Notes under the pieces: model-generated
Told to the model about the DNA's origin: nothing
What the model saw: the letters and a program-made list of their open reading frames with translations, nothing else
The model's database searches: none
DNA from: a virus
Direction: 5' to 3' (one strand)
Virus record (IMG/VR): IMGVR_UViG_3300030419_004857
Span: 32,001 to 96,000 of that record
DNA: 64,000 nt
Translations under genes and position numbers: made by a program
Shown: positions 1,656-29,574 of the stretch, piece after piece
How the letters are laid out: each line of letters begins with the position of its first letter
Position numbering within the stretch: position 1 is the first letter of the stretch

Positions 1656-2168
1656 ATGGCTTGGCAAAACGAGATGTCTATCATAGTTCGTCACCTAGTT
1701 AACGATCTAGACTCTAGCGCCTATGTTTTTTCCAACGATAGGGTGGAGGAGACAATTTTGGTTGCCTCACAACTTGTGTTGCACGAAATGGACTTTGAAA
1801 ATACGTACAGTGTGGATGTAGATTCTTCATCTTTATCCCCAGATCCCACATCGTCCAGTAATAAGGATGACGCATTCATTAGTCTTGTTTGTCTGAAATC
1901 TGCATACATTCTTCTGGGCAGTGAAATTAAAACTCATTCGCTAAACTCCATCTCTCTTAAAGATGGTCCCTCTTCTCTAGATCTAAGAGGGATCGTGCAG
2001 GGGTTAAATATACTATTTTCTGACGTAGTTAAAAGGTATGATGAAGCTAAGCTTCAGTATCAGCTTGGTGGCAGCATTGCTGGTCAAGCCGTCCTTAGCC
2101 CCTATTCTCCCGGTAGCGACGTGGCATATAGAACAAATCTATCCTCAAGATCAGGACGTTTTGAGTAA
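1656..2168 (+). CDS. putative head-tail adaptor/connector protein
   Basis: VRHLVND.....Y.FS.D start, helical, 170 aa, position upstream of the neck and tail genes. Confidence 0.5.
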   Translation: MAWQNEMSIIVRHLVNDLDSSAYVFSNDRVEETILVASQLVLHEMDFENTYSVDVDSSSLSPDPTSSSNKDDAFISLVCLKSAYILLGSEIKTHSLNSISLKDGPSSLDLRGIVQGLNILFSDVVKRYDEAKLQYQLGGSIAGQAVLSPYSPGSDVAYRTNLSSRSGRFE

Positions 2169-4450
2169 TGGCAGAATACACAAAGGCTAGTCTAAAGACT
2201 AAAATTAATGCTGATCTCGCTGACAACAGCGAAGGCGATATCAGTGCGCAAGATGTTAGAGAAAATATGATTAACATAGTTGACTCTGTTAATCCTATTA
2301 TGGCTAGCGGTTCCAGTGTATACTTTCAGAATGATGTTGCTATATGGTCTAGCGGAGTTCTCACAAAGAATACTGCGTTGGGAGTAATTAAAGGCCAGTG
2401 GGGTAAAAATTCAAGCGGTTTCTACGACACGTCAGCTATTCGCTTTTCAAGCGGCGGGGATACGGTCAATAAAGATGACGGCCACATATCATTTTACACA
2501 GCCCCTTCTGGATCTCTTAGCACTACAGGCGGTCCCGATTTAAGATGTAGAATGATGATCTCTAACAGCGGCGTTATTTCTATGTTCGGTAGTGGAGTTG
2601 TTCACCCCACTCTGCATTTACAATCTATACACGGTTCTGGACTCAACCTTTTATTCGACGGCTCTCCAAAAGACATGGCTGTTCCAGAAGGTAAAAATTT
2701 CCAGCTAGGACATTGGAATTCCAATACGTCTACATTTACCAATAGATTTACAATAAATGACAAGGGGTATATGGGCTTGGGGGTTGATTTGCCCAGCCAG
2801 CCAATTCATGTTAGACATTCTGGTGTTAATACTTCCAGTTATATTTTAAGGTTTGATTCCCAAAATTACCCTTCCTCGACTAACGCCGACATTCTTCTGT
2901 ACAAATATGATACGGGAACAACCACCCATAGTGCTGATGACATGCAGCTTGGATTTGGCATGGGTGTTAATGCTATAGGTAGTGGAAATGGTTATTTCTT
3001 TATTGGAAATGATGCAAACAGAGACTTTGCGGTCACCGCGCTGGAATCTATGCTCGTAATCAACAGTGGGGGAAATGTTGGCATAGGAACCACCATACCA
3101 AAAGAAAAGTTGGTAGTGGGAGAAGATCTGGGAGATCTAAGTACAACTGGAAATGCTGTAGTTATTGGGTCTAAAAATGGTCCCTCTCAATTATTTATAG
3201 GGTCTGGTATTAATGACCCCCTGACAGCGCAATATGGTAAGGTTAAATGGGAGGATGATAATCAGAGATTCGTTTTAAGCACCAAAAAGAATTATCATTA
3301 TGCGGATCAGCTAGTTTTAGATTCTACTAATGGCAACGTGGGAATAGGGGGTTCTGGCCATCCTTCAACAGTATGGCGTCCTTCTTACAATTTACACGTA
3401 GCTGCTAGCGGAGCTTCTGGAAAAATCGCTTTAGAAAATTCACGCAATACTGAGACCGCTATATACATTGGTAAAGACACTGACGGCACAGGCTCGGTTG
3501 GTGAAGGTCACTGGTCACAGATAGGCTATAAGTCTGCCACCGAAGTTCTCAAGATCAATAATTCGGGATCATTTGTCCCCTCTCATCTGACCATTGACAG
3601 ATTAGGCCACGTAGGCATAAGTACTGACTCAGTATATAGTTCTAACACCATAGGCACAGACAAGCTACATATTCACGGTGAAAATACCGGTGTCCTCATT
3701 GGAACTCCCTCTGGAGGATCTGGAAAAACTGCACTTAGACTGCTAGGCTCTAGAGAATCAGGCACTTCGTCTGACGACAACGCTTTTATCCAAGCTGGAA
3801 CTACATCTGCCGATACAGGTGCGAAATTACGCATAACCAGAATGGATACTGACGATACCAATATTTCACGCATGGATGTATATGCAGATACTTCTGAATT
3901 TCATGGAAACCTGTCTCTTGCGGGAAATATTTTACTAAACGACTATTGGATTAGTAACGATGGTGGCAATGAGGGTCTTAGAGTTGGTGATGATGGCAAG
4001 GTTGCTATCGGCAAGACTCCGGGCGCTACTCATACATTTGAGCTTAACAGCGGTCAGGGCGCTCAACCAACAAGCACACTATGGGTTAATACTTCTGACC
4101 AAAGAGTAAAAGAGAATATTGAAACTATTGATACGTCTGATGCTCTAGACAAAATAATGTTGTTAAGACCTGTTAGTTTCAATTTCACACACGATTTCTG
4201 TCATTGCATTAGTTCAGATCATGACCAAACCCACTATAACTTTATAGCTCAAGAAGTTGCAAGCGTCTTTCCTGATTCTGTAATTGATACTGATAATCAT
4301 GTTGAGGATCATGAAACGGGCGAGATATCAATATCTGATCTTAAGGGATTAGATGCGCATGCAATTAACATACATTTAGTTTCTGCTGTACAAGAGTTAA
4401 AAACACAACTTGACGCGGCATTAGTTAGAATTTCAGAACTAGAATCCTAA
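2168..4450 (+). CDS. tail fibre/spike with C-terminal intramolecular chaperone (peptidase S74)
   Basis: GNVGIGTT / GNVGIG / GHVGIST / GKVAIG repeats; SDQRVKENI autocleavage site, LRPVSF, FIAQEV and a terminal coiled coil (LVSAVQELKTQLD). Confidence 0.85.
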   Translation: MAEYTKASLKTKINADLADNSEGDISAQDVRENMINIVDSVNPIMASGSSVYFQNDVAIWSSGVLTKNTALGVIKGQWGKNSSGFYDTSAIRFSSGGDTVNKDDGHISFYTAPSGSLSTTGGPDLRCRMMISNSGVISMFGSGVVHPTLHLQSIHGSGLNLLFDGSPKDMAVPEGKNFQLGHWNSNTSTFTNRFTINDKGYMGLGVDLPSQPIHVRHSGVNTSSYILRFDSQNYPSSTNADILLYKYDTGTTTHSADDMQLGFGMGVNAIGSGNGYFFIGNDANRDFAVTALESMLVINSGGNVGIGTTIPKEKLVVGEDLGDLSTTGNAVVIGSKNGPSQLFIGSGINDPLTAQYGKVKWEDDNQRFVLSTKKNYHYADQLVLDSTNGNVGIGGSGHPSTVWRPSYNLHVAASGASGKIALENSRNTETAIYIGKDTDGTGSVGEGHWSQIGYKSATEVLKINNSGSFVPSHLTIDRLGHVGISTDSVYSSNTIGTDKLHIHGENTGVLIGTPSGGSGKTALRLLGSRESGTSSDDNAFIQAGTTSADTGAKLRITRMDTDDTNISRMDVYADTSEFHGNLSLAGNILLNDYWISNDGGNEGLRVGDDGKVAIGKTPGATHTFELNSGQGAQPTSTLWVNTSDQRVKENIETIDTSDALDKIMLLRPVSFNFTHDFCHCISSDHDQTHYNFIAQEVASVFPDSVIDTDNHVEDHETGEISISDLKGLDAHAINIHLVSAVQELKTQLDAALVRISELES

Positions 4451-10586: not shown

Positions 10587-13500
10587 ATGTCGTCTAGATT
10601 TGTTTTAACAGCACAGCTAAATCTGCAAGCTCCAGATGTTAGAAGAGTCGTAAGAGAAATACGCAGAGACTTGTCTGGAATTACCGTAGATCTCAGAGTT
10701 AAAAACGTTGACAAGATACGTAGAGACATTGATAAAGCCACCAAGTCCTTAAAAAGGATGGACAAGCAGACTAAAGCTAGTGCTACCGGCTTCGCAAAGC
10801 TAAGCAAGCAAATGGGTCAAGCCATTAAGAATGTTATTAGATATGACATTGCTAGAAGTGTAATTACCGGCTTTACTATGGCTCTTCGTGGAGGGGTACA
10901 AGAGGCTATAAAGTTTGAAAAAGAATTGATCAAGGTTGCTCAGGTTACAGGTAAGGCGACTTCCAATTTATCTGATCTTACAGGTGAAATCACTAAAATT
11001 GCCACCAAGTTTGGTGTATCTTCATCTTCTCTGGTAAAAACGTCTAGAGTATTAGCTCAGACTGGTATGGCTGCTAACGAAGTACAGAAGGCATTAAAAG
11101 CTCTGGCTCTTACCACTATTGCCCCCACCTTCGATGACATTTCCAATACTACAGAAACTACCATTGCGATGATGCGTCAGTTTGGTATTGCCGCCAAAGA
11201 CGTACAAAGAGAACTTGGTAGAATTAATGCAATAGCCGGTCAGTTTGCTGTAGAGTCTGCTGACATTGGTGTGGCCATTAGAAGGGCGGGTGGAGCTTTT
11301 AAATCTGCCGGTGGCCAACTGATGGAATTGGAAGCTCTGTTCACTAGTGTTAGAGCTACGACGCGAGAAACTGCGGAAACCATTGCTACCGGTTTCCGAA
11401 CCATTTTCACCAGAATGCAACGCCCAAAAACCATTAAATTCTTAAGGTCTATGGGTATAGAGCTACAAAACCTTCAAGGCCATTTTATAGGTCCATATCA
11501 AGCCGTTCAGAAACTTCATTATGCTCTTAAAGGTTTAGATCCACGAGACGTTAGATATTCACAGATCGTTGAACAGCTTGGTGGTTTTAGGCAGGTGTCT
11601 AAAGTTATTCCAATGATTCAGCAATTTGAAATGTCACAAAGAGCATTAAACGTGGCTATGGCTGGAGGAGGCTCTCTGGCTAAAGATGCGGCAAAAGCTC
11701 AAGAAGGTCTGGGAATTCAATTCACCAAGGTAAAAGAAGAATTTACCGCCCTGATGCGTGAACTTGCCATGAGTGAAGGTTTTAAGGCAATGGCAAAAAC
11801 TGTCTTGGCTCTAGCATCTGCTCTTATCTCATTAGCCAGCGCGCTTAAACCCGTTATTCCTCTCTTGACAATGCTTATGGTGGGCAAAGGTCTGTCAATG
11901 GGGGTGGGCTTTATGGGCAAGGGGCTGGGCAAGATGAAGGGGATGGCGAGGGGTGGAATAGTTCCCGGCAGGGGTAATGGTGATACTGTTCCCGCTATGT
12001 TAGAACCGGGCGAGTTTGTGTTGAGAAAGTCTGCTGTAAATGCTATTGGCGCTGGCAGGCTTGCTGGAATTAATAGGTATAATCGTGGCGGTAGAGTTAG
12101 GATGGCGGCTGGCGGAACGTTTGGTCCAGTGCAGCAGTTTGACAGCAATTCTGCTAGATCAAACATAATGAGGAAGAAAAGAAGAAATTATAATAAAGAG
12201 CGTGGTAAGGTATTTAAGGCCGGTGAGCACGCCTTTAATCCAGAAGACAATATCTCAATACCTCAATATTCGAAAAAGAGCTTAAACGCAGCGTCACTTC
12301 TGGGTACAATTAAATCAGAAAAAGCGGCCAATATAGCGAGGACATATCTCCGTGGTCCTTTTGGACAAGGCAGAGCATATGAACAACTTCTCCGTGGTGA
12401 ACATCGCACCGGCGCGAGGAAATACATGACACAAGCGCCCGGCACGGGTGGAACTCAGCCTTTTGACGGAATGTCAAGGGATGGTAAGTTTGTAGAAGCT
12501 AAATCTGTACAACGGTTCGACCGCCATGCGATTGGGGATAAGGCTCTTCAACAAGCCCTAAAAGGTTCCAAAAAATCGCAAATGGGCGCAATGACTCAGA
12601 ACAAAGATACGATAGGTATCTGGGGTATGAAAGTTAGGGCATATCAGGACAATCCCAAGTCCAGCCGAGAGGTAATTAAGGAACAATTAGGGATATGGGA
12701 TGCTAACGAGAAGAAGCGGGCTGATGCGGCGGCAAAAAAGAAAGCACTGAGAAAAAGAGGAAAGGGAGCAACAGGGGGTGTAGCTGTAGGAACCGATACT
12801 ATACCCGCGCTATTAACTCCGGGTGAGTTTGTTATAAATAGAAAATCTGCTAAAGCTTTTGGGTATGGAAATCTTGGTAAGCTTAATAAGTATGCAAAGG
12901 GTGGCGTTGTAGGCAGGCAAAGGTTTGCAGGGGGTGGTGAAGCTGCGGGCGGTGGTGGATTTATGAAGATCATGGGTCTTACCATGGCTATTGATATGAT
13001 CGTACAGATGACCACTACGATGGGAGGCGCGTCTGAGAAGACTCAAGAATTTGCAAATAAGTTAACGTCAGTAATTACTGGCATGGGCGTTCTTCTAATG
13101 GCTATCCAAAGTGAAGCGGCAGCTAGGATGGCTGGCCAAGTTAGGGGAATGAATATTCCCGTGGTGAGTTCTGCGATGTCAGGAAAGGGCTTGGGGGGTA
13201 GATTTGGTGCTGGTGGTGGTTGGGCTGGCGGGATTATAGATAAAAAAGCAATGAAAGGACACAAGATTTTCGGCAAAAGTATGTCGAGAGAAGCGTTTGA
13301 TAAAGGAATGGAGGCTCGTAAGCTTGCAAAGGCAGATGTTATGAGAGCAGCGGGATCGCCAATGAAGGGCACTGTCATGCACACTAAGGCTGTTGCGGAT
13401 GCTTCAAAGGCGGGAACGGAGGCGTTTAAAAAGACATCAGGCGCAATTATGAAAACGACTAAGGCCATGCGGGATCTTGCGCTGGTCATGGGTATGGCGG

Positions 13501-16500
13501 GCATGGCAGTAGAGATGTATGGAGATCATATACACGAACAGGGCAAAAAGGCGATAGAGGCGGGGAATTACGAAGAGGGCAGGATGAAGATGGTTAAGGG
13601 TGGGACGGCGGCAGGAGCAGGGATGGGTATGGCTATTGGGTCTATTCTTGGACCCTTTGGCGCTGCTATTGGCGGGCTGGTTGGAGGATTGTATGGATAT
13701 TGGAAGTCGGTTAAAGAATCTGCCGAACTGATTGAAAGGGTGAAATTTGGAGAGCAATTAAAGCATTTCAAAAATGCCCTAAAGGCTGTAACAGAGGGCA
13801 AGGCGTCTCCGATGGCGGCTGCTGCAAGTATTTCTGCTGGAGTTAAAGCACTAAAAGACAGATTTAATACTCTTGCTAATGCTGCTGATGTTGATGAGTT
13901 GCAAGGGGAAATTAAAAATGCCGTGCCAGCACTCCAAGCTTATATAGATAAAGTCGCTGAAAATGTTACAAGTTTCGCACAGCTAGAAAATGTGGTTGGT
14001 AAGGATACTTTTAGAACATTCTCCCAGTTTTCTAAAATCCCCGTAAGCAAGCTGAGAAAACAATACACAGAACAAATTGCCTTGATGCAGAAATCTAAGA
14101 CTGCTCAGGCTAAGATGTTAGCGGTGATGGAACAACAAACCAGAACAATGTTGATGGTTCGTGATGTTACTAATTCTTTTGCTGCGTTAGAAGCGGGCTT
14201 GCTTACTTTTGATACCGCTCTGGATAATTTAAGCCAGTCTATGAACAACAGCTTCACTGTCAGCGCTGGCGGTAGTATGGCTCCAGCGTTTAAGAACTTG
14301 GAGTCTATAGTTGATTTTGCTGGCTTTGGAAAAAGGGTGGACGCTTTAGCTGGTATGATGGAGCCTTTTTCTGGTGGAATGGCAGAACAAGTTAAGTCTG
14401 CTGCGGTAGTAATGAGAGACCTTCCCGCCATCCTCTTAGAGGCTAGTAACGAAATTGGGGTTGCTGGTGCAGATGCCGGAACCATTATTATGGACAAGCT
14501 GGACCAAGCTGACGTTGGCGGTTTTCTTACAGATAGCATGAAGCGTGGCTTATCGGCTCAAATAGAAGCGTTTACCCTTGGAGAGGGTGGCGGTGGTAAA
14601 CTGGCCGATATGATCAAGAAAGATCTTGATGGAGTTATTAAGCGTCTGACCAAGGGCGTTTTGACATCTCTCAAGGCTTTCCAAAAAGCCGCCGAATTCT
14701 TCGACAAAGCTAATGCCAGACTAGCTAAAGCATTCCAGCTAAGAAATCAAATTGACCAAAAGATTTTAAATACTAGAATAAAGCTGGAAAAAGTTGAAGC
14801 TGATCATGCCGCACGTCTAAGGAGGGCTAGAGGACAAAAGGCAGATCCCACAGCCCAAAGAGATATGTTCCAAAGACAACAGGCGGTGAGAGCACAGGCT
14901 GCTGGAGTAGCACCCGGTGGAGGCATGAATGTTCAAGGGCTTTCCCAAGAATTTAATTTGCTAAAAGTTAGGATTCAGGCGAGTAACCAACAGTTGGCAC
15001 AACAGGGGCTTGATCCTGCGCAGTTGGCGGGAACACAGAACCTGCTTGATAGCCAGAAGAAGTTGATTGAGCAAAATGCAAATCTCAAAAAACAATTTGC
15101 TGCCACTAAGGATGCATTAGTAGCGTTTGCTGATACCGCGAGTAGAGTAGCGGAGATAGAAAGAAGTCTTGCCGAAGAGAAGAAGTCAAGAGAAGCAAAG
15201 AGGGGCGTTGTTTCCGAGTTTACCTTTGGTACAGACGAGAACAGAAAGCAGCTAGCCCAGTCATTAAATACTACATTCGCTGCTGCTGCGGCGGGAACTA
15301 TTTCTTATGTTGATGAAAAGATGCGTCCCGCCGTAGGAAAAATCTTAGACAGGTTCAAAGACGTAGAGCTACCGGGGCTTGGCGGTAAGACTGGCGGCGA
15401 AGTTAAAAAGGAAATGGAGATTGATTATCTGGAGAGCGTGTTTGGACCGCTTACCGCCGCTCAGAAAAAGCAGATTTTTGAGAGAACCACAGCAGAAGAA
15501 CAACTTATTAAGGAAATGCAGAAAGTTCAAAAGGACGCTTTAGATGCCCAAAAGGCTCTCCTACAAGGCTTAAAGGATGATAGACGCCAAGCTAATCAAG
15601 AAATTACACAGCTTCATGAAAATTTGGTTAACGGGCTAGAAAGAGTTCTTACCGAGCAAAACAAAAGACAGATGCAAAGAGAGTTAGGGCAAGAGAAAAG
15701 CACTAAACAGTCTGCTGATAAGACTCTTGCTGTTTTAACTAAGCTTCAGGCAGATATTGGTGGTGCTGGAGTTGCTGATCTTTCTACTGGTCAGGGCATG
15801 GAGCAATTTAGGAATATGATGCCTGCTATGGTGAAGGCGCAAGAAGCGCAAGCGGAACAGGCAAGAATTGCGGCCAGTGGTGTTCAAGCGGTTTATGAAA
15901 GTGCTCGTAAGGATACATCTATGACCAGTACTGGTTTTGAAGATGTGTTTGCACCGATGGGGCGTGGGGCGGGCATGGGTATCGATTGGGATATGAAAGA
16001 TCTTTCCCATGCTCAGGACTTGATGGAATCTTATATTAGGGATAATGTTAAGGATCAAGAGATTGCAGACGCAATGATCATGGATGGTAAGAATAAGATG
16101 GCGGAAGCGTTTAAAGCGGGTATGGATATTGATGATGCAGGCGTAGTATTAGAGGGTGTTTTTGCTAGCGTTGCCAAAGGACAGATGGATCAGCATCAGA
16201 AGACCATAGACGCTGCTCATCAACTGGCAAAAGCCCAAAATCTAACAACCGTTCAGTTTAACAATCTTGTAACTCACGCCAGTCAATTCTCAACGGTCCT
16301 AAAAAATATTCCAAGCGGAGCCAATATAAAGGACTTGTCTGATGCTTCTCAGACTGCGGCTGGAAACATTCAACAGCTAGATACCAACATTCAGGGCGCA
16401 AACGCAAGATTAGGCCAACTTGGCCAACCCGGCGTTGGTGGACGGGTTCAGACTCTAGCGGTGGGCGGTGTGGCCTTTTCTCCTAAAGGAACTGACACAG

Positions 16501-19313
16501 TACCGGCCATGTTAACCCCCGGTGAGTTCGTAGTTAATAGAAAATCTGCCCAAGCTAATATGGGGACTTTAAAAGCTATTAATGCTGGATATTATTCGGG
16601 TGGTGGCGAGGTGCAGTTGCAAATTCCACATCAAATGAGATACTTCGATTCCACTAAAGATCTTACGGAAAAATCTATTTCTTCATGGAATCCTGCCGAA
16701 CATATAAATAAACCCATGCTGGCTCTCTATAAGACACTTTCTGAAGCAAAACAAGGCATGAAAAGTGTTCCATTTTGGCTTAATGATCCCAAGGCGATGG
16801 ATTGGACTCCGGGGGATACACCTACTGAGGGCATTAATGCAATCATAGGTCATATGATGGGGACGGGTGGTCTGAAAAATCTGCCTTCTGAGGAGTTTAA
16901 ACACGCATATATGCAGTGGATAAAGGGGGGGATGCCCGGAAGCGAAAAAGGAGTAGAAGGTGTAATGCTCGGTGGAAATGATCCGAGTTGGTGGAATTAC
17001 AACAAAGAGAGCGGAGCGGTTTGGACGGATGTAAAAGGTCTGCAACGGGACATGCTCGGAGATTCGCATGCACTTTCTGGCAAATGGTTGGAAGCGAGTA
17101 AAGGATTTGGGGTTGGTACTACCCAAATAGTCTCAGGGAGCGTTTCCGGCGGCGTCGGGGGTCGTGGTCATGGTGGGGACACGACCACAGTGTCGACCCA
17201 CGTGATTCGCCGTCGTCCCGGCCAACAGATACCGGGATTGTGGGCGCAGATGAGACTAAATAATGGAGCCAAGATATTCAAGTTGAGCGAAATAGCAAAA
17301 TCAGGAATAAAAGCTGATATGCATAAGTATTCTGATGGTATCTGGAATATTGGCCCCAATATACAAGGACAAAGCACCCAATATACATCCTTGAAGAAGA
17401 GTACGGGTCTACACAACAGTGGCAGGCAGATGGAGGTTGATGGGCCTAATGGAACCTTAAGTCAGGTCTTCGACTGGGGCGCATTTTTAAAATCTTCTTC
17501 AGAAGGGAAAGCGTTTGTAGACAGATATCAACAGTTTGCGAATGATAAGGCAAACTATGTGGGAACCTTAGCGGCTAATTGGCTGGCTGGAAAAAAGGAA
17601 GAAGCCGTGGTGGCTGCTAGTGATCCCAAGTTAGCAAGGGAATTGATACAGGGTCTTTATACTCATATTGATCAGGCGGGGATTGGGAGGGACTTTTCGG
17701 GTCTTAGTGGTGAAATAGACATGGCGAATCTTCCAATTGGCGGCAGAAGGCAGCTAGGTGGGATTGGATCGAGCACATTGAGACTGCCCGATGTCTTAAG
17801 GTGGGCTTTTAACGATACGATATTTGGTGAGAGAGGCATTTTAGCCAAGATGATGCTAGATTCGGACTCGTGGATCAAAAAAGCAAAGAATGATCACGGC
17901 GTTGCCTCTGCCGCGCTTAAACAAATGTATAACCACGAAACTCCCCATCACTTTATTGGACACATATTTGATCAATATGGTTTTTCAGATATAGGAAAAA
18001 GTGTAGAAGAAAAAAGAGCTACAGATAAACAGGCGAAAAAGCAAGACTTTGACGATGCGACCGCAGCGCGAATATCCGATGCTAATATAGCAATCTATGG
18101 CGCTAATGAGGTGGGAAAGGCTTTCATTAAAAAAGCGTTTGGAGACTCAGCATTTAGAAGAATGAGACTGCCGGGTTACGCAAGAACGAACTTGGAACTC
18201 AATAACCGACAAGGAACATTACAGAGCGCACTTGCTAAGCGTGGATTTTGGAATAAGGGTAAACCGGCAGGAGGTGATGCGTCCCCAGCATGGTTCACAG
18301 GAGCCATATTCCCCACTATCATGAACTGGATTGACATTTTAGATAAGACCCAGCAACGTTGGGGAATAATTTCGGCTTCTGATGGTAAATCCTCTTTCGA
18401 ATGGGACGAAGCTAGGGTTTTGGCTAAGATAGAAGAAGAGCGTTTGGAAAATCCGAAGGCTGCTGGGGGTAAGGGTAGCATGTTTAGTGCGGTGAATGGC
18501 TTTATAAGAATGATCACGCCAAGCATGAGTCCATTCGATAAAAAACATCCATTTCAACAAGGGGGCATCTCAGGCAGTATGAAAACCGGTGGGGCGGCGG
18601 AAGAAGCATTTACTAGAGCCATTTTTAGCGGAGCCGCAGGATATTATCAAGCCGTTGCTGCCGCATCAGAAGCTTTGACAAAGACGGTTGACGAAACATA
18701 TCAGTTGACTCCAGAAGGATTAATGAAACAACAAAAGAAGAAGGCCGCGCCAACAAAACCGACTCGACCGAAAAATGTTCTTGGGATGGCTCAAGGAGGA
18801 GCGGTTAGCTCCGCGATGTTCGTTCCTCAAGGCACTGATACCGTTCCCGCCATGTTAACTCCCGGCGAATATGTAATAAGAAAATCCTCTGTGGATGCTT
18901 TGGGGGTTGAGTTCCTAGATTATCTGAATAACTCCAGTCAGAAATCTACCGGAAGAAAATATAGCAGGGGTGGTCAAGTTCAATATCTACAGGAGGGGGG
19001 TGAAAAGACTGCTGGAGGCGCCAAGCTTGATAGTAGTGCTTTTGATGCAAGTGTAAAACACTTTTCTACTATTGTAGACAAACTTAGTAACATAACTTTG
19101 GGCGGATCACTAACGGTTGATGGTACAGTTAATGTGAATGTTAATCTCAATGGTCATGAAGTTCTTGCGGAAGCCAAATCAGAACTTGGTCGAGCGGCTG
19201 GTGATAAGATCGATGGAGGAATCATTTCCATGCTAAAGGCTCACTTCCCTAAGATTCATCCGAAATTATCATACAGTAGTCCAGAAGGTCCGTCGCATCC
19301 GGGGCCACCATAG
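10587..19313 (+). CDS. tail tape measure protein (2908 aa) with embedded cargo regions
   Basis: TP901/PhageMin_Tail-like core (FEKELIKVAQVTG...LAQTG...AIRRAG...TRETAETIATGFRTIFTR), hydrophobic and glycine-zipper segments, long coiled coils, four G.DT(V/I)PA(M/L)L.PGE(F/Y)V motifs. Confidence 0.9.
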   Translation: MSSRFVLTAQLNLQAPDVRRVVREIRRDLSGITVDLRVKNVDKIRRDIDKATKSLKRMDKQTKASATGFAKLSKQMGQAIKNVIRYDIARSVITGFTMALRGGVQEAIKFEKELIKVAQVTGKATSNLSDLTGEITKIATKFGVSSSSLVKTSRVLAQTGMAANEVQKALKALALTTIAPTFDDISNTTETTIAMMRQFGIAAKDVQRELGRINAIAGQFAVESADIGVAIRRAGGAFKSAGGQLMELEALFTSVRATTRETAETIATGFRTIFTRMQRPKTIKFLRSMGIELQNLQGHFIGPYQAVQKLHYALKGLDPRDVRYSQIVEQLGGFRQVSKVIPMIQQFEMSQRALNVAMAGGGSLAKDAAKAQEGLGIQFTKVKEEFTALMRELAMSEGFKAMAKTVLALASALISLASALKPVIPLLTMLMVGKGLSMGVGFMGKGLGKMKGMARGGIVPGRGNGDTVPAMLEPGEFVLRKSAVNAIGAGRLAGINRYNRGGRVRMAAGGTFGPVQQFDSNSARSNIMRKKRRNYNKERGKVFKAGEHAFNPEDNISIPQYSKKSLNAASLLGTIKSEKAANIARTYLRGPFGQGRAYEQLLRGEHRTGARKYMTQAPGTGGTQPFDGMSRDGKFVEAKSVQRFDRHAIGDKALQQALKGSKKSQMGAMTQNKDTIGIWGMKVRAYQDNPKSSREVIKEQLGIWDANEKKRADAAAKKKALRKRGKGATGGVAVGTDTIPALLTPGEFVINRKSAKAFGYGNLGKLNKYAKGGVVGRQRFAGGGEAAGGGGFMKIMGLTMAIDMIVQMTTTMGGASEKTQEFANKLTSVITGMGVLLMAIQSEAAARMAGQVRGMNIPVVSSAMSGKGLGGRFGAGGGWAGGIIDKKAMKGHKIFGKSMSREAFDKGMEARKLAKADVMRAAGSPMKGTVMHTKAVADASKAGTEAFKKTSGAIMKTTKAMRDLALVMGMAGMAVEMYGDHIHEQGKKAIEAGNYEEGRMKMVKGGTAAGAGMGMAIGSILGPFGAAIGGLVGGLYGYWKSVKESAELIERVKFGEQLKHFKNALKAVTEGKASPMAAAASISAGVKALKDRFNTLANAADVDELQGEIKNAVPALQAYIDKVAENVTSFAQLENVVGKDTFRTFSQFSKIPVSKLRKQYTEQIALMQKSKTAQAKMLAVMEQQTRTMLMVRDVTNSFAALEAGLLTFDTALDNLSQSMNNSFTVSAGGSMAPAFKNLESIVDFAGFGKRVDALAGMMEPFSGGMAEQVKSAAVVMRDLPAILLEASNEIGVAGADAGTIIMDKLDQADVGGFLTDSMKRGLSAQIEAFTLGEGGGGKLADMIKKDLDGVIKRLTKGVLTSLKAFQKAAEFFDKANARLAKAFQLRNQIDQKILNTRIKLEKVEADHAARLRRARGQKADPTAQRDMFQRQQAVRAQAAGVAPGGGMNVQGLSQEFNLLKVRIQASNQQLAQQGLDPAQLAGTQNLLDSQKKLIEQNANLKKQFAATKDALVAFADTASRVAEIERSLAEEKKSREAKRGVVSEFTFGTDENRKQLAQSLNTTFAAAAAGTISYVDEKMRPAVGKILDRFKDVELPGLGGKTGGEVKKEMEIDYLESVFGPLTAAQKKQIFERTTAEEQLIKEMQKVQKDALDAQKALLQGLKDDRRQANQEITQLHENLVNGLERVLTEQNKRQMQRELGQEKSTKQSADKTLAVLTKLQADIGGAGVADLSTGQGMEQFRNMMPAMVKAQEAQAEQARIAASGVQAVYESARKDTSMTSTGFEDVFAPMGRGAGMGIDWDMKDLSHAQDLMESYIRDNVKDQEIADAMIMDGKNKMAEAFKAGMDIDDAGVVLEGVFASVAKGQMDQHQKTIDAAHQLAKAQNLTTVQFNNLVTHASQFSTVLKNIPSGANIKDLSDASQTAAGNIQQLDTNIQGANARLGQLGQPGVGGRVQTLAVGGVAFSPKGTDTVPAMLTPGEFVVNRKSAQANMGTLKAINAGYYSGGGEVQLQIPHQMRYFDSTKDLTEKSISSWNPAEHINKPMLALYKTLSEAKQGMKSVPFWLNDPKAMDWTPGDTPTEGINAIIGHMMGTGGLKNLPSEEFKHAYMQWIKGGMPGSEKGVEGVMLGGNDPSWWNYNKESGAVWTDVKGLQRDMLGDSHALSGKWLEASKGFGVGTTQIVSGSVSGGVGGRGHGGDTTTVSTHVIRRRPGQQIPGLWAQMRLNNGAKIFKLSEIAKSGIKADMHKYSDGIWNIGPNIQGQSTQYTSLKKSTGLHNSGRQMEVDGPNGTLSQVFDWGAFLKSSSEGKAFVDRYQQFANDKANYVGTLAANWLAGKKEEAVVAASDPKLARELIQGLYTHIDQAGIGRDFSGLSGEIDMANLPIGGRRQLGGIGSSTLRLPDVLRWAFNDTIFGERGILAKMMLDSDSWIKKAKNDHGVASAALKQMYNHETPHHFIGHIFDQYGFSDIGKSVEEKRATDKQAKKQDFDDATAARISDANIAIYGANEVGKAFIKKAFGDSAFRRMRLPGYARTNLELNNRQGTLQSALAKRGFWNKGKPAGGDASPAWFTGAIFPTIMNWIDILDKTQQRWGIISASDGKSSFEWDEARVLAKIEEERLENPKAAGGKGSMFSAVNGFIRMITPSMSPFDKKHPFQQGGISGSMKTGGAAEEAFTRAIFSGAAGYYQAVAAASEALTKTVDETYQLTPEGLMKQQKKKAAPTKPTRPKNVLGMAQGGAVSSAMFVPQGTDTVPAMLTPGEYVIRKSSVDALGVEFLDYLNNSSQKSTGRKYSRGGQVQYLQEGGEKTAGGAKLDSSAFDASVKHFSTIVDKLSNITLGGSLTVDGTVNVNVNLNGHEVLAEAKSELGRAAGDKIDGGIISMLKAHFPKIHPKLSYSSPEGPSHPGPP
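11943..18975 (+). repeat. four dispersed ~45-60-aa GG..G.DTVPAMLTPGEFV..RKS repeats in the tape measure protein
   Basis: Copies at about 11943-12092, 12765-12905, 16455-16605 and 18786-18975. Confidence 0.9.
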
Positions 19314-19325
19314 TAGGAATAGGAT

Positions 19326-22013
19326 ATGGCTACAATTAATAACAATATAGGATTTTCAATGCTAGCGGGCGTGGAACACGTCGGCACTAAAAGCATTGCG
19401 CCTAGTGGTTTCAATCAAGAGTATGGCTATTGGAGAGGTAATAAACACAGGACGGTGATTGAAAATAAATTCAATCAATTGTATATGGCTTTTGAGGGTA
19501 GTGGAGTAACTGGGGGCGCAACCTACCCACTAACTTGGAACAATGCAGGAGAAACTGTTCCAATATTCACCACCGCAGGCACGGCATATAATTCCAGCGT
19601 AAACAAGGCTGGAAGCCTATCAGCCACGATGGGTAATAATGCTATACAGGAAAGGTCTGTTTTTCTTGGCAAACACCCCTTTATGATTGCTAGCGGTATA
19701 ACTACCGAACCATATTTTTCTGCATACGCTAAAGTCTTGCCCAGTGGTAATATGGCCGATACGGTTATAATGGGGCAACATAATGCAGACCCCGCACAAT
19801 TTATTTTAGGCTGCGATGGTGACGGTAAATTTTATGTCCGATCTGATGGCGTGGTTTCCGGCGTAAATATTCCATACTATGCCAAGAGTTCTAAAAACTT
19901 CGCAGACTACGATTATCCTGTACATATTGTAGGTACGTATGCTTCTGGCGATGGGTTTTTAAAACTTTATGTAAATGGCGATTTCGAAAGTCAATCAGCG
20001 TCATTTACCAGAGACATAACTGACAACAGTGACACATGGGTCTATATTGGTAAAAGACAATTTGCATTTGATCAAAGGCCATTTACCGGATGGTATGATG
20101 AATTGGGTGTTGGTAATGTTAGCATGAAAGAGTCTGATGTCAAGGACTTATATTACAGCACATTTGGTTTAAGTAGATTTATTCGAGACGAAATAAGAGA
20201 AGACGGCGATGCAAGTTCAGGAACTATAAGTAAGTGTGGTTGCACAACTCTTCCAACAAGTGTTCAAGCAGAAATTACTGGAATAACTTTACCGGACGGT
20301 GGAACCGACAAGGGCGCGGTGGGAGAAAAAATTACGCTAACATACGATGCTGCCGCCACTTATACCGACTCTGCCGGTCCTACTACCTACACCGGTATAT
20401 GGGATTCTGGAACTACATCTCTATCTTGTGGGGGCACAGTTAGATTAAGATTGTACTGTGGGGCAAGTAGTAATTTTTATATGGCTCATGATTTTTCTTT
20501 TATGAGCGCCGGTGAAGAGCAGAGATCCAGTCAGGTTTGTAGTCCACTTAATATTGCTTTCGCTCTTGCTGGAGTAACTTCTGGAGGCGGGGGGTGCTGT
20601 AGTGATGACGCCGCTGCTGAAATTGCAGTAACTGTTACCGGAAGCCCAACCCCCCAATCTTTTTCGGGTGCGGATTTTGGCGCTGGCTTTTTGGCAACTG
20701 ATGAGACCTATATTCATTTTGTTGTAGAATCTGGCGTCTTGAGTAGTGACAGAGGAAAATCTAACCGTAATCAAGCTATGGGAAAAACCCTTGGTGGGGC
20801 TTATGACAAAACCCTTTGGGGAACTGTCGCTGAACATGCGATCTCATCCCAGATCACCTTCGATCTAGAACCATCCTACGGAAATTTCCACCAGCTAACA
20901 GACATTTCTGTAGAGGTTTTGGCTGAGCATTTAACCAACCATCCCAGCGGTGCAAAACTATCTGTTTCCATAGACAAAAAAAGTGCTGGCCCCAATGAAT
21001 TAAATTGGTATCCTTTGGGGGTAATGGTTCCGTCTGGCTCTCTTCAAAAGCTAACCTTTACTAAGGATTTAGACGAAACTGTATATCGTTTAGATAGTCG
21101 AAGTTTTAAAGAAGAGTTTGATGATCACCAATTAAAACTAACAGTTTATTATCCTCAATCTGACGAGCCTTACGACGGTGAGTTCAAAATTTATTCCACG
21201 AGGGTAAACTACGGGAGCTTCTCGCGGATAGATACTGCTGTTTCGACTGAACCTACACTTTTCACTAAAGGAGGTTCGCTTGTAAGTGCTAGCGGCAATA
21301 TGCCACTGTTTGTAAACGCAGATATAGCCGCAGGAAGTTTAGAGCTATTTATGGATGCCACGCTACCTCAGTTGCTTGGCGGGTCTGTAATGTCGGCTGA
21401 TGCTAGTGTAATTACGAATAAAGATATTTCGTTATTTACTCAAGGAGGAATGATAACTCTTGAGACCCCAATGTATATCTTGGGTTCAACCGAGGGGAAA
21501 ACTGGCTTTGTGGAAGCTTTTGGTTCGATAGGTCTAGAGACCAAGGGTGGCAGACACGTATTTCCTCACGCTCAAGCAACAACATCTCTGTTCATTAAAG
21601 ACGTTGTTTCGGGAAGTGGTTTGGTCTCTGATAGCATGAACCTATTCTTGAAGCCCGCGCCTTCAATATTGACAAGCGGGACTATGAACATGTCTGTAAG
21701 GGGCGATTTCAATAAGACTATACCACTGTTCCTAAAGGGGGCTGAAGCCTCTACAGCAACAGCCACCCTAATACTAGAGGGGCCAGAACAGATCTCAACC
21801 AGCGGAACAATGAATTTATTTATCAAGCAAGCAGACCCTCTTTTCCTAAGCACTTCTCAGTTGTCTTCTAACGCGGGGGTTCTGACCAACAATAATACTT
21901 CTCTACATATTTCCGGTCTTGGGTTCCCCAGCGGAACCATCCCATTGTCAATGCCAAATACTATTGGTAAACCGAACAATTCAATAACGTTAAACATAGA
22001 GGGCTATGAATAA
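19326..22013 (+). CDS. LamG/concanavalin A-like domain virion protein with Cys-containing insert and C-terminal beta-repeats
   Basis: HIVGTY.....LKLYVNG...VYIGK...FTGWYDELGV is the LamG-like signature; many (S/T)(M/I)(N/P)LF(I/L).G repeats in the last ~260 aa. Confidence 0.7.
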   Translation: MATINNNIGFSMLAGVEHVGTKSIAPSGFNQEYGYWRGNKHRTVIENKFNQLYMAFEGSGVTGGATYPLTWNNAGETVPIFTTAGTAYNSSVNKAGSLSATMGNNAIQERSVFLGKHPFMIASGITTEPYFSAYAKVLPSGNMADTVIMGQHNADPAQFILGCDGDGKFYVRSDGVVSGVNIPYYAKSSKNFADYDYPVHIVGTYASGDGFLKLYVNGDFESQSASFTRDITDNSDTWVYIGKRQFAFDQRPFTGWYDELGVGNVSMKESDVKDLYYSTFGLSRFIRDEIREDGDASSGTISKCGCTTLPTSVQAEITGITLPDGGTDKGAVGEKITLTYDAAATYTDSAGPTTYTGIWDSGTTSLSCGGTVRLRLYCGASSNFYMAHDFSFMSAGEEQRSSQVCSPLNIAFALAGVTSGGGGCCSDDAAAEIAVTVTGSPTPQSFSGADFGAGFLATDETYIHFVVESGVLSSDRGKSNRNQAMGKTLGGAYDKTLWGTVAEHAISSQITFDLEPSYGNFHQLTDISVEVLAEHLTNHPSGAKLSVSIDKKSAGPNELNWYPLGVMVPSGSLQKLTFTKDLDETVYRLDSRSFKEEFDDHQLKLTVYYPQSDEPYDGEFKIYSTRVNYGSFSRIDTAVSTEPTLFTKGGSLVSASGNMPLFVNADIAAGSLELFMDATLPQLLGGSVMSADASVITNKDISLFTQGGMITLETPMYILGSTEGKTGFVEAFGSIGLETKGGRHVFPHAQATTSLFIKDVVSGSGLVSDSMNLFLKPAPSILTSGTMNMSVRGDFNKTIPLFLKGAEASTATATLILEGPEQISTSGTMNLFIKQADPLFLSTSQLSSNAGVLTNNNTSLHISGLGFPSGTIPLSMPNTIGKPNNSITLNIEGYE

Positions 22014-23974
22014 TGTCAGTTTCATTTCACCCCAATGCAGCAGCCGGTGCTTCGTATTTAATACCAACCCCCTTTGTCAGTGTGGGTAAAACTTTTGACA
22101 AGTCTGGTTCTGGAGAAATTTTAGGGGTAAGATATGCTATCACCTTAACCGGAACTCTTATTTACGATAGAGGATCACCCAACTCATCTGGGGGTTTCTC
22201 TTCCTCGGACGCTACCGAAACCATTGCGGCTGATGCAGAATATGCATCCATACAAGCTAAACAAAAAGCGATAATGAATTTGTTTAGTAAGAAAAACGAA
22301 GGTGGATTGTTACATGTGGATAATCCAAAGGCTGGCGCTGTCGGTTTTAAATGTTATCCCAGAATTATATCTGTTGATATGCCGACTCATGATCCGGGTA
22401 GGCCCACCATGGCGGCATATACTATAGTTTTAGAGGCGGATAAATTAATTGGCCCAACAGGCGTATTAAATGATGAGGATGATTGGGAAAGATTAAATAA
22501 GTGGCTAGTTTCTTCGGCAAGTGAAAGTTGGACTATAAATGAGAATGAGGGCGGAAAAGCTATCACTATGGCTTCTGGCCCTATCACCAAAGTGGAAAAA
22601 ACCTACACTCTTACCAGAAATATTAGCGCTACCGGCAAAGGCAAATTTGATACTAGTACAGCAGCGGCAGATGGGCTTAAGGGTGATGACTTTAGTACTA
22701 AATACGTGGAAGATGTGGTTACTTCCTCTGGAGGAGCAGAACCAACATACACAACAGTCGCAAAAGATGGGCAGGCTTGGCAACAAGCTAGAGGCTTTGT
22801 CTATGACATTCTGAAGTATGGAAATGTCTTTTTGGTAGGGGAGCAAGCTAACAGTACCAATACCATGGATGCTAATGGTATTAATTTACCTGACGGATAC
22901 GATGGGTACAACTATGTAAGAAGTGAAACGGTGGACGAGCTTGGCGGCACTTTTAGTGCTACCGAAAGTTGGATATTGCTTCCAGATGGTCATAATAAAG
23001 TAACTGAAACTGTTGAAAGTTCTCTTAGTCAATCTCAAGATACCGGAATAATAAAGGTGTCAATAAATGGCACAATACAAGGAGTGGGAACTCAAAATAA
23101 GGATGCTACTTTACCCGGCACTGAGGCTGCGGATACCACTGTAGATTTTGATGACAAGTATGCCAACGCCACAGCTAGACTAACCGGAATAGAAGGTAAG
23201 TTATACCTGACGGCTCAGGATTTATTACGGGATAATGCTGCGTATAGTAGCACGGTTCTTAACCCAACCCCATTATCTAAAACCGTTGGCAGGAATCCCT
23301 ATACAGGGACTATCACATATAGTTTAGAGTTTGACAATAGGCCCACATTTGCTATACCGGGTGTCAGAAGTGAAACCATTACAGTCAATGACACATATCC
23401 GGGCTATGTAGCAGCCACTACTCAGGTTATAGGCAGGGCTTTAGGTCCGGTTCTACAAAGTATAGGAACTCAAACTGTGTGGGAGCGCTCTCTTAGTATA
23501 TCATGCGTTGTAGACACTTCCGGTGGTTATTGTACGGGGCTAACAGATGATACTGGGGCGGCAGTGACCCAACCTACCAATCAGACTGATTGCGAGGCCG
23601 ATCCCGGTGGAACAGGAACTGCTGGTACTTGGTCTCCGGGTGGGAATAATGCATTGGGGAATCCAGAGGTTGATTTTTATGCTTCTTCTATGGCGGCTAA
23701 GCCCAGTCATGTACAAACCCAAAGAGAGGCGATAATAAAAATTATTGATCAATTCAATCCCGCTAAGGCGGGGACGCATGATGGCACACCCACTGGCACT
23801 CCTCTCATAAATGTGTTTTTTACAAAGTCGCCTTCAGAAACATGGAATCCTAGAACTGGAGCTTGGACATTTGATGTTTCGTGGACTTATGAGCCATATC
23901 TAACGTATCAATTCATACCTCTCGGTACTCCCCAAACTAATTCGGCAGCACCATATCCGAAGACGATTATTTAA
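22013..23974 (+). CDS. putative tail-tip (distal tail-like) structural protein
   Basis: Beta-rich, S/T-rich, repeated SESW/TESW/SETW strands; downstream of the tape measure gene. Confidence 0.5.
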   Translation: MSVSFHPNAAAGASYLIPTPFVSVGKTFDKSGSGEILGVRYAITLTGTLIYDRGSPNSSGGFSSSDATETIAADAEYASIQAKQKAIMNLFSKKNEGGLLHVDNPKAGAVGFKCYPRIISVDMPTHDPGRPTMAAYTIVLEADKLIGPTGVLNDEDDWERLNKWLVSSASESWTINENEGGKAITMASGPITKVEKTYTLTRNISATGKGKFDTSTAAADGLKGDDFSTKYVEDVVTSSGGAEPTYTTVAKDGQAWQQARGFVYDILKYGNVFLVGEQANSTNTMDANGINLPDGYDGYNYVRSETVDELGGTFSATESWILLPDGHNKVTETVESSLSQSQDTGIIKVSINGTIQGVGTQNKDATLPGTEAADTTVDFDDKYANATARLTGIEGKLYLTAQDLLRDNAAYSSTVLNPTPLSKTVGRNPYTGTITYSLEFDNRPTFAIPGVRSETITVNDTYPGYVAATTQVIGRALGPVLQSIGTQTVWERSLSISCVVDTSGGYCTGLTDDTGAAVTQPTNQTDCEADPGGTGTAGTWSPGGNNALGNPEVDFYASSMAAKPSHVQTQREAIIKIIDQFNPAKAGTHDGTPTGTPLINVFFTKSPSETWNPRTGAWTFDVSWTYEPYLTYQFIPLGTPQTNSAAPYPKTII

Positions 23975-23984
23975 GGAATAAACT

Positions 23985-26900
23985 ATGGCACACGGTGAAG
24001 AACTTATTACATCGCCAGTTGTTCAACAGAGCTTCTTTGGGGCTTCGATTACTAATTTTTCCGTCAACATCGGATTTAATAGTAACTCTTCTAGCCTTAA
24101 TCTTTCCTTGGTGGAAGATAATAAATTTAAAGAAGGGAAAATTCCCAATATAAATAATGGTGTTGCGAGAGGAAGCTCGGTCTGGGAGGGGTATCATCCT
24201 TGGGATCATTCTGCTCACCCCGTAACGACTATGGGTGATTGTCGTGAGCTTCAAATCGGCGCTGCGCGCCCGTTGGCTGATTATGGAGACTTCTTTTGTC
24301 CTCCCACACCCGGAGAACCTGCGTATTTTAAATATTATGACGGTGTTGGAAGCTTGGTTTTTTCCTATAACGGAATTGTAAATCGATACGAAAGAAGTCA
24401 GGGTGGCAGTGGAACTACTTATAGTGTCAGTATCTCAGATCCACGAATGATACTAGAAGGTTCCCAGCTTATTTTTGACAAGTATATGGGAACTACCGCA
24501 CCGGCAGATGCCTCTCACAGCTTAGTGACTTCTCCTTTTGCCAGAACATATACCAACGGCTGGTTGGGGTATTATAATTTAATTAACGTATTTGGATATT
24601 ATGAAGGCGTTCAATACGGAGCGGCATTGAAGACTGACGCGGGGATGCCTTGGTTAAAAGTTTTGGATGCTATGAACATTATGCTTACATCTAATTCTAT
24701 ACCGGGGACGACGGTGGCTCCCTATATGCCTAATGAACCGTATGGCGGGCCTTTATATTACTTACCTAAGAGCGCTCCCGGTGCTCCAATATCTACTTCT
24801 CCAGTTAATGCCCATAGGTATAAAGTAGATGTAATGGATCTAGCTTTATTAAGCGGAACGCGCAACCCGACGACTCCCACAAACAAAGGGGGTATAATTC
24901 CAGATGATTTTAGAATCTCTGGAACAAGCATGAGCATAATGAGTTTTATACAACAGGTTTGTGACACAGGTGCAGCAGACTTCTTTGTTGAATTACAAGA
25001 AGATGGACCTATTTCAGAATATGACAATGCTGGAAATTTGATTGCTACTCATTCAAGTCCCTTCGCCGGGGTTATAAAAGTAAGAGTGATACCAAGGAAT
25101 CGTCCTGTAGTACTAGGAAAAATTAGAGCAGAAATCAACAGGGCTACTACCCTCCCCGACCCCACCACCGGATTAAGCACCTCCACGGGTCCGTGGGCCA
25201 ATAGAGTTGTCTCCTCTAGTCTAGGTTACGAATTTACTGATCCTGAAGTTGGCACTATGATGATTGGTGCTCCTAGAACAAGAGTTATTGGGGTTACTCC
25301 TTTAGGGGCTGCTAAACTTAGATCTGAATATGCTGTTGGGGCTGATGTTCTTGTAGAAGTATATCCAGATGGCGAATTCGACGGCGTTAAGATGAATGGT
25401 TATCCAACTGATTTGTCAACATTAGAAGCATTGAAGCCTCAAGATCCTCAATTCCCCAGTACTTCACCAACAGAAGTTACAAGAAACGACAACTATCTTA
25501 ATTGGTTCTGGGGTTTGCATGGAAATAACCTCGACAAATCAGTAAGGCAATTAAATTCTGTTGAAGAAGGACAAGACGGAATGATAGACATGTTTCCTTG
25601 CTGGGGTTTTCACACTGTGACCCCCGTAGGAACTTCTCATGGCGCGGTTGTTTCAGTAGAAAGCAAGGGAATGCCCATACTAGGGCGATTTCATGATGAC
25701 AGTCCGTATAGAGATTTTGATAAAAGATATGGAATTTTTTCTAGTCATGAAGATCATGGCGTGCTGGAATGGGTAAAGGGTGGAGATAAGGCGACTGGAA
25801 CTGTGGCCGATGCAAGATGTTTAGGTGGCCCACTTGGTAAATACAACGCTTCTTGTCCAGCAAGTCGTAATGTTTCAGTTCCAAGCGCAACTTATAATGT
25901 TCCAAGATTTCGTACACAATCTGATTCAAATATTGCGTGTAGTTCAACCTCTCAAACTGCTGCGTGTAAAGCTATAGATCTTAGTAGTCCTTTTAAGTCT
26001 CCGGTAAGTGCTACTATTCCTATTGACTTGGGGATGATCGGTTATGGTGGTGGTCCCACTGGAATCAATGGAGATTTTAGTAATTATTATTATGCGACTG
26101 TTACAGAATTAAGACATGCCATTCAGGGAAAAGAAGACTGGTTAAAATATATGAGAGATTATCAGCCATTTTTGCCGTGTTATATGGGCTGGAATGGTTA
26201 TTGTCCTATACAAAATATGAATGGTCCGGCGACGGGTAGGGCGATTGCAGGTACTATAGGTCAGGGGCTGAATGTTGGAGCAAACGGTCAACAGCAGAAC
26301 CAAGCCGGTCGTCGTGCTGATGGTAGAAATTCTGAAGACACTTCGGTCGGGGCAATGCAAGCGGCTCAGGCTAGGCAAAAAAAGGCTGTAGCTGCTATAA
26401 TGGCGGAACAGCAAAATCACGCTTTTAAACAGATTAGTAATATAGCTAATAATTATTATGGTAAAAAATACTTAGTTCCTCTACCATATGCTGGACAGTT
26501 TGATGTCTTTGGCGATATGGATAATTGGATTAAAAGAATAGATGCAGCATCTATGCAGTTTGAATTGAGATGGGATATTAGCAATGCTGGCTGGGCTGGA
26601 GAGATAAAGATTGCAGATCCAGATCCCGTCACCGGAAATGCCAATCCAGAAGAGGGAAAAAGATATCCTCATAATGTCAATTTTTATGATGAAGATGGAA
26701 AGCTCGGTGCTTTTGTGGCATTTCCCACTAAGGAGAAGATGAGGGGTTCTAAGCAGATGGCCTTTTTAGATTTTGGATCGATTTCTCCAGACGACATACA
26801 TAGCACACCCTTGGCTAATAATAGTATGGGGGGAGATTCAGAAGGAAAAACTTATGTAAAGGCTAATGTGGATACTAAGACTTATTGGATGTTAGATGCT

Positions 26901-27701: not shown

Positions 27702-27718
27702 ATATCTAGGAATAAAAA

Positions 27719-29566: not shown

Positions 29567-29574
29567 GAACAGTA

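Follow-up and report, generated by a model that had tools for sequence, protein, structure and literature searches.

We analysed a window of 64,000 nucleotides (nt), corresponding to bases 32001-96000 of the 161,265-base IMG/VR virus record IMGVR_UViG_3300030419_004857, which CheckV rates as complete. The window contains the gene of a giant tape measure protein (TMP), termed P0001, in which a conserved module occurs four times. Comparison with related TMPs shows that blocks fenced by this module have been swapped wholesale between otherwise near-identical phages, with crossovers at the xAxGG edges of the module. Thus, the ruler P0001 probably has a second role in carrying exchangeable cargo. 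Moreover, we give a slightly better than even chance to the proposal that the module is an old and widespread junction element of TMPs, which acts both as a recombination patch and as a cut or hinge joint that would release the exchangeable cargo.

Four module copies divide the tape measure protein P0001

P0001 is a TP901-type TMP, as it exceeds the cut-offs of two family models. PF10145 matches amino acids (aa) 136-333 (E 6.9e-25, 88.5 bits, curated cut-off 33.2) and TIGR01760 tape_meas_TP901 matches aa 94-425 (E 1.1e-25, 90.5 bits, cut-off 28.8). A preliminary description of the DNA had reported four copies of a motif in this protein, arranged in two pairs that each bracket an insert. The four copies are borne out by three analyses. 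The regular expression DT[VI]PA[ML]L.PGE[FY]V matches P0001 at aa 466-478, 737-749, 1970-1982 and 2751-2763, the motif cores being encoded at nt 11982-12020, 12795-12833, 16494-16532 and 18837-18875. When the complete 161-kb genome was searched in six frames with copy 1, these four places in the TMP were the only matches, with E values of 8.6e-50 for copy 1 itself and of 8e-10, 1e-9 and 6e-9 for the other three. Finally, an alignment of the four copies spans about 75 aa and contains 14 invariant columns. The resulting layout of the gene is as follows (window coordinates):

10587..19313, + strand: tape measure protein gene P0001, a single open reading frame (ORF) of 2908 aa that matches PHROG tape-measure families
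10587..11921, + strand: N-terminal TMP domain, aa 1-445, with a hydrophobic stretch (aa 399-441, by hydropathy) at its end
11922..12146, + strand: module R1, aa 446-520, with MARGG, GDTVPAMLEPGEFV, helices and YNRGG/MAAGG
12147..12743, + strand: insert 1, aa 521-719 (199 aa), an exchangeable cassette that is weakly PD-(D/E)xK-like
12744..12974, + strand: module R2, aa 720-796, with GATGG, TDTIPALLTPGEFV, helices and YAKGG/FAGGG
12975..16433, + strand: middle ruler segment, aa 797-1949, in which hydropathy reveals glycine-zipper/hydrophobic stretches (aa 822-840 and aa 1014-1035)
16434..16652, + strand: module R3, aa 1950-2022, with LAVGG, TDTVPAMLTPGEFV, helices and YYSGGG
16653..18776, + strand: insert 2, aa 2023-2730 (708 aa), an orphan cassette whose first part is exchanged and whose last part is conserved
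18777..19049, + strand: module R4, aa 2731-2821, with MAQGG, TDTVPAMLTPGEYV, helices and YSRGG
19050..19313, + strand: C-terminal tail, aa 2822-2908 (87 aa), probably the tail-tip-binding end

The inserts within the two pairs, first estimated at ~220 and ~720 aa, measure 199 aa (521-719) and 708 aa (2023-2730). All hydrophobic/glycine-zipper stretches (399-441, 822-840 and 1014-1035) and the tape-measure domain (about 94-425, the region of PF10145/TIGR01760) lie outside the module pairs, in agreement with the earlier claim that tape-measure and membrane sequence would be found there. The middle ruler segment also matches Gly-zipper_Omp with an E value of 2.6e-4, which is under the curated cut-off of that family. 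The arrangement in two pairs holds for P0001 but is too narrow as a general rule, since in relatives with 5-8 copies the modules separate all adjacent blocks. There they stand like fence posts and also flank the conserved helical ruler segment.

The module is conserved in giant tape measure proteins

A search for relatives of P0001 yielded 298 long TMPs of 1600-5000 aa. We examined 121 giant TMPs, P0001 and its relatives P0002-P0121, and found 2-8 module copies in every one of them (121/121). P0001 contains no cysteine, and the same applies to 111 of the 121 proteins. The module, for which a profile was built from 140 copies, comprises ~70 residues that follow a common plan: (F/x)AxGG, about 8 aa, the core GTDTVPAMLTPGEFV, two short helices and (Y/F)AxGG. 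Conservation was counted over the 465 of 531 copies that were anchored on the core. Each of the 13 core residues, D-T-V-P-A-M-L-T-P-G-E-F-V, is 85-100% conserved in them, the core is followed by (I/V)NKxA....G...L..(I/L)N, and the flanks are rich in glycine. An xAxGG motif, mostly FAxGG, is found at most 35 aa upstream in 69% of the modules, the commonest distance being 13 aa, and (Y/F)AxGG is found 30-55 aa downstream in 61%, with a chance expectation for an xAxGG flank of about 0.06. Among the residues directly before AxGG, R or K ranks second in frequency.

In an AlphaFold2 model built from the 140 copies (pLDDT 65), the core is extended and two short helices are predicted with confidence. 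A Foldseek search with this model gave no match. Likewise, no Pfam family, LysM (PF01476) included, matches the module even at E <= 10, and no NCBIfam model covers it. A prediction of a trimer from three copies scored 0.01, which gives no verdict, and was not used either way.

R1 and R2 of P0001 are 60-69% identical to the copies in the same slot of other TMPs, but only 31-38% identical to the other copies of P0001 itself, and R1 is most similar to R1 of other TMPs (0.60-0.65 identity). By these identities, the module copies are positional orthologues rather than recent duplicates, which indicates that the layout is old and that each copy is maintained by selection.

Module-fenced blocks are exchanged between close relatives

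The nearest relative, P0002, is encoded on locus L005 of an independent ENA metagenome, and its locus is 95-97% identical to ours at the nt level over 29 kb. This identity is interrupted by two gaps, both of which lie within the TMP gene. A scan of IMG/VR with the ruler segment found no close relatives. We compared P0001 to P0002 region by region, using aa identity, synonymous divergence (dS) and the ratio of nonsynonymous to synonymous divergence (dN/dS):

Backbone: aa identity 96-100%, dS 0.02-0.17, dN/dS about 0.24
Insert 1 region (aa 511-727): aa identity 20-53%, dS 2.7, dN/dS 0.19
Insert 2a (aa 2001-2455): aa identity 23-50%, dS 1.4, dN/dS 0.45

Insert 1 itself is 40% identical to its counterpart in P0002. 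The saturated dS of the inserts next to the low dS of their flanks, together with a dN/dS below 1, means replacement by diverged alleles and not rapid change in place. Moreover, the purifying selection on the exchanged blocks indicates that they code for working proteins.

At the codon level, the identity to P0002 stops directly after MAAGG (aa 506-510), is back at ATGG in R2 (aa 728-731) and stops again directly after YYSGGG in R3 (aa 2002-2007), so that three of the four switches are located exactly at xAxGG edges. The same trend is seen in 12 close pairs of TMPs, not all of which are independent of each other, where modules ± 15 aa account for 36 of the 60 identity switches, compared to 9.3 that are expected. 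The suggestion of the preliminary description that the module anchors recombination and cassette swapping is thus supported by P0002 as well as by the other close pairs.

The last third of insert 2 (window 17952-18776, aa 2456-2730) behaves differently from the exchanged first two-thirds. Of the codon changes that separate it from P0002, 12 are nonsynonymous and none is synonymous, compared to a dN/dS of about 0.24 in the backbone, a pattern that may reflect positive selection. A diversity-generating retroelement was considered as its source and rejected, since the changes are not adenine-specific.

The inserts are diverse and mostly lack recognisable domains

The 640 inter-module and terminal segments cluster into 174 sequence families, 122 of which are singletons. 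Large conserved families were obtained for the N-terminal domain, for the ruler segment and for the C-terminal tail. The N-terminal domain is homologous in 108 of the 120 relatives, at 44-98% identity. The middle ruler segment, which is 97% identical to that of P0002, is a member of the largest segment family, which comprises 102 proteins, and the C-terminal tail, which is 100% identical to that of P0002, has homologues in 9 relatives. Invariant and helical inserts across homologues would have argued against the exchange of cargo; instead, the inter-module blocks turned out to be very diverse.

Pfam searches over 115 representative cargo segments recovered only two ADP-ribosyltransferases (ARTs) and one or two P-loop NTPases. 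ART domains (PF03496, PF18760) are found in the giant relatives P0063, P0101, P0119, P0121 and P0106, and in the representatives tested the matches lie in inter-module slots.

Insert 1 belongs to a family that consists of the inserts of P0001, P0002, P0003, P0020 and P0124 and of two remote members, and that always occupies the slot between R1 and R2 wherever the flanks are known. It has no sequence match in Pfam, PHROG or the PDB. A homologue search limited to insert 1 found nothing, a profile search over longer proteins added two fragments only, and after local iteration the family stayed at five members. Its AlphaFold2 model (pLDDT 68, pTM 0.58) has a predicted alpha-beta-beta-beta-alpha-beta core, as in the PD-(D/E)xK topology. 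The residues E599, D627 and E637-x-K639 (E79, D107, E117 and K119 of the alignment) are kept in five of the seven members, and the remaining two have DAA. Structure comparisons point in the same direction with weak scores. The best Foldseek rows are Cas4/ACE1, McrC, PvuII, NhoI and lambda exonuclease (E 0.18-2), and in the VIA comparison the Z scores are 4.1 (root-mean-square deviation 3.8 over 87 residues) and 3.4 for FAN1/VRR-NUC and 3.6 for Cas4. We consider the chance that insert 1 has a PD-(D/E)xK nuclease-like fold to be somewhat below even.

Insert 2 has no match in Pfam, NCBIfam or the PDB, and an exhaustive search of 1.84 billion representatives detected only two fragments as relatives beyond P0002. 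Insert 2 is rich in Trp and His, in contrast to the remainder of P0001.

The module is homologous to a region of lambda gpH

When the 140-copy profile was searched against the whole PDB, TMPs were the only significant matches. It matches gp16 of mycobacteriophage Douge (PDB 8zdo) twice, at residues 963-1030 and 1411-1460 (E 1.6e-10), and gpH of phage lambda at residues 732-795 (E 1e-4 PDB-wide and 1.2e-9 in a local run). By these profile matches the module is homologous to lambda gpH 732-795. The order of elements in gpH is a hydrophobic/glycine-rich stretch (686-720), FATGG, KYEPAGIVHRGEFV, helices and YATGG.

Lambda gpH is known to be cleaved in a glycine-rich region, which gives rise to gpH* of ~78 kDa and gpHC of ~14 kDa (PMC12617516). 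For a cut at residues 715-735, we compute a mass of 78-80 kDa for gpH*. The sole residues of gpH that are resolved, 818-849, are located within the tail tip (PMC10721106, PMC12617516). In the 121 giant TMPs the last module is a median of 116 aa away from the C terminus, so that R4 and the 87-aa tail of P0001 look like a gpHC-type unit. Another TMP known to be processed is pb2 of phage T5, which is cleaved after R1127 into pb2* and pb2C at ...FVPR|AEGG... (PMC10038345).

The gene neighbourhood of P0001

The TMP gene is part of a tail block, with a tail fibre gene upstream (PHROG) and large distal ORFs downstream, and the gene order around it is the same in L005. The tail fibre gene (window 2168-4450) matches PHROG tail fibre families, and its counterpart at L005:1578-3848 bears Peptidase_S74, a self-cleaving intramolecular chaperone. 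The TMP gene is followed by five very large ORFs (window 19326-36162; 895, 653, 1238, 615 and 2195 aa), the first of which is the only one with a Pfam match (Laminin_G_3), and none of which has a PHROG match. Pfam detects no sheath domain in the genome. The structural genes are on the + strand until about 37.4 kb and are followed by a long block of - strand genes; both the coding strand and the GC/AT skew change over at ~37500 of the window.

Discussion

In giant TMPs, a module is placed at each border between the conserved ruler/membrane blocks and the non-ruler blocks. We propose that at the level of DNA it would serve as a homology patch for recombination, since it is the only sequence that otherwise unrelated TMP genes have in common. 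At the level of the protein it would be a joint of the TMP that is cleaved, or that at least acts as a hinge, when the tail matures or at ejection. The cargo blocks would then be freed into the host envelope or cytoplasm before the DNA, whereas R4 and the 87-aa tail would be retained at the tail tip, like lambda gpHC. For P0001, the cargo would be insert 1 (199 aa, possibly nuclease-like) and the orphan insert 2 (708 aa). The case for a processing or release role, which the preliminary description had also suggested, is circumstantial, as it derives from the homology of the module to the part of gpH that lies just after the cut region. That the module-fenced blocks deliver effectors is what we infer; recognisable enzyme folds are found in few cargo blocks only, namely ART and P-loop NTPase domains and, in Douge, NlpC/P60.

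A number of points weigh against this proposal. On the side of processing, the TMP cleavages that have been published, in lambda and T5, do not concern multi-module proteins, and the ten tail proteins neighbouring the TMP contain no Pfam peptidase or JAB domain. In lambda, neither the cut site nor the protease has been identified (PMC12617516), so that the module is at most a candidate for the cleavage site. The lambda core, KYEPA, lacks the D-T, which makes a shared D-T self-cleavage chemistry unlikely. T5 pb2 had to be rejected as a member of the module family, since the profile gives no match to it with all filters off; the likeness of its AEGG site is therefore by eye only. Moreover, the modelled monomer has no compact fold and is folded only partly. 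On the side of exchange, the fourth boundary between P0001 and P0002 (aa ~2455) is within insert 2 and not at a module. The count from the close pairs is affected by their partial dependence, and an enrichment of boundaries is partly expected anyway, since the modules form conserved islands and lie at domain borders, which inflates the count. Finally, globular cargo of 200-700 aa would have to fit the lumen of the tail tube in 3-6 copies.

The first alternative is that the module is a docking or registration element that is not cleaved. Its binding partner would be a tail assembly chaperone, the lumen of the tube or the tail tip; alternatively, it would keep the TMP chains in register around a bulky insert. 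The exchange of cassettes at modules would be a by-product of conservation. This would account for a 13-residue core that is much more conserved than a protease site requires, and it fits a monomer model that resembles an interface peptide, with an extended stretch and two confident short helices. The last copy is about 100 aa from the C terminus and hence near the tip-binding end, and the counterpart of this end in lambda remains in the virion (PMC12617516). However, the 1150-aa ruler segment is devoid of any copy, which is a poor fit to a periodic contact with chaperone or tube. Furthermore, the single copy of lambda adjoins a known cut. We regard docking without cleavage as unlikely, though by no means negligible.

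Secondly, the module might act after ejection as a unit that binds the envelope, either peptidoglycan or membrane, through a LysM-like strand-helix-helix-strand arrangement, and might thereby place enzyme blocks in the periplasm. The predicted order of an extended strand, two short helices and a strand would agree with this, GEFVxNKxAxxxxGxxxLxxxN resembles the LysM pattern by eye, modules adjoin hydrophobic/glycine-zipper stretches in both P0001 and lambda, and those of Douge flank a cell-wall hydrolase match. Yet neither LysM nor any other Pfam family was matched at E <= 10, a structure search with the low-confidence module model found nothing, and the most conserved part of the module, DTVPAMLTPGE, is outside the helices. 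An envelope-binding unit is in our view quite improbable.

Least probable of all, and already disfavoured, is that the modules are mere conserved linkers from old internal duplications between inserts that simply evolve fast, and that the junctions have no particular role in exchange or otherwise. Switches at the edges are to be expected in any case where conserved islands alternate with variable domains. However, the saturated dS of the inserts (1.4-2.7) contrasts with that of the flanks (0.02-0.17) at a dN/dS below 1, and the near-invariant core in copies that are otherwise about 30% identical, together with their positional orthology, shows strong selection on every copy.

A bolder form of the junction proposal is that xAxGG-core-xAxGG is a general processing joint of TMPs and that giant TMPs are polyproteins which are cleaved at every module as the tail matures or at ejection and which inject exchangeable effectors before the DNA; this would also explain the conversion of gpH to gpH*. 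The effectors would include nuclease-like, ADP-ribosyltransferase and NTPase domains and hundreds of unknown folds. We consider this extension doubtful.

If the module is a cut or hinge joint, the xAxGG beside the GEFV core would be a residue-level candidate for the gpH site of lambda, which has escaped mapping since the 1970s. In that case, the giant TMPs that uncultured phages encode would represent a second route of protein injection besides that of the head-packaged polyvalent proteins, and their hundreds of uncharacterised, fast-exchanging domain families would be candidates for anti-defence or host-takeover proteins. In addition, the module profile offers a simple way to separate the ruler blocks of any TMP from its cargo blocks when genomes are annotated.

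Comparison with known systems

Enzyme motifs embedded in TMPs, the cleavage of the lambda and T5 TMPs, polyvalent proteins and TMP-derived effectors of contractile injection systems (CIS) are already published. In contrast, a literature search for the motif strings returned nothing on phages, and we found no paper on the module as a repeated cassette border.

The polyvalent proteins that phages and conjugative elements encode (Iyer et al. 2017, PMC5512222) are, like the giant TMPs, very large, have a mosaic multi-domain build and reach the host together with the DNA. The two also share quick shuffling, ART domains (PF18760 in one TMP relative) and a proposed processing. However, polyvalent proteins are packaged in the head or transferred by conjugation and are not TMPs, which the paper does not mention, and it describes no conserved junction module. 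P0001 was considered as a polyvalent protein and rejected, as it is a TMP without MuF, zincin-like peptidase or ART; ART-PolyVal is present in one relative only.

The TMP-related effectors of actinobacterial CIS (Sle1 type) likewise combine a tape-measure-derived scaffold with interchangeable domains, and a domain swap has been shown to alter their function (PMC13277306, PMC11126660). They differ from P0001 in being cellular and in having one C-terminal functional domain, and we found no report of a repeated GTDTVPAMLTPGEFV module in them.

Among the phage TMPs, T5 pb2 is cut at an xAxGG-like site between a hydrophobic stretch and a C-terminal, enzyme-bearing piece. Lambda gpH shares a whole series of elements with it: a hydrophobic/glycine-rich stretch, FATGG, a core (...PAGIVHRGEFV), helices, YATGG and a short tail located at the tip, a layout of gpHC that is mirrored by R4 and the tail of P0001. 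However, gpH has one degenerate copy without D-T and no cargo, whereas P0001 has four copies around two inserts.

Finally, mycobacteriophage TMPs are known to have embedded cell-wall hydrolase motifs, an example being gp17 of TM4 (Piuri & Hatfull 2006, cited in PMC13277306); the flanking module is not described in this published work. The actinophage variant of the module is present in 1055 records of cultured phages, among them phages of Pseudomonas, Vibrio and Burkholderia, and most records have a single copy. In Douge gp16 (L007:615-5711), an NlpC/P60 match (aa 1295-1331) is located between the two module copies, and the first copy is followed by a long proline-rich linker and then by a hydrophobic stretch. 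Douge gp16 thus provides a single module-cargo-module cassette in a cultured phage, with one slot that contains a recognisable cell-wall enzyme and with the actinophage variant of the core, SDSMLARVSNGEFI. P0001, in comparison, has two slots with unassigned domains, and its relatives have up to seven.

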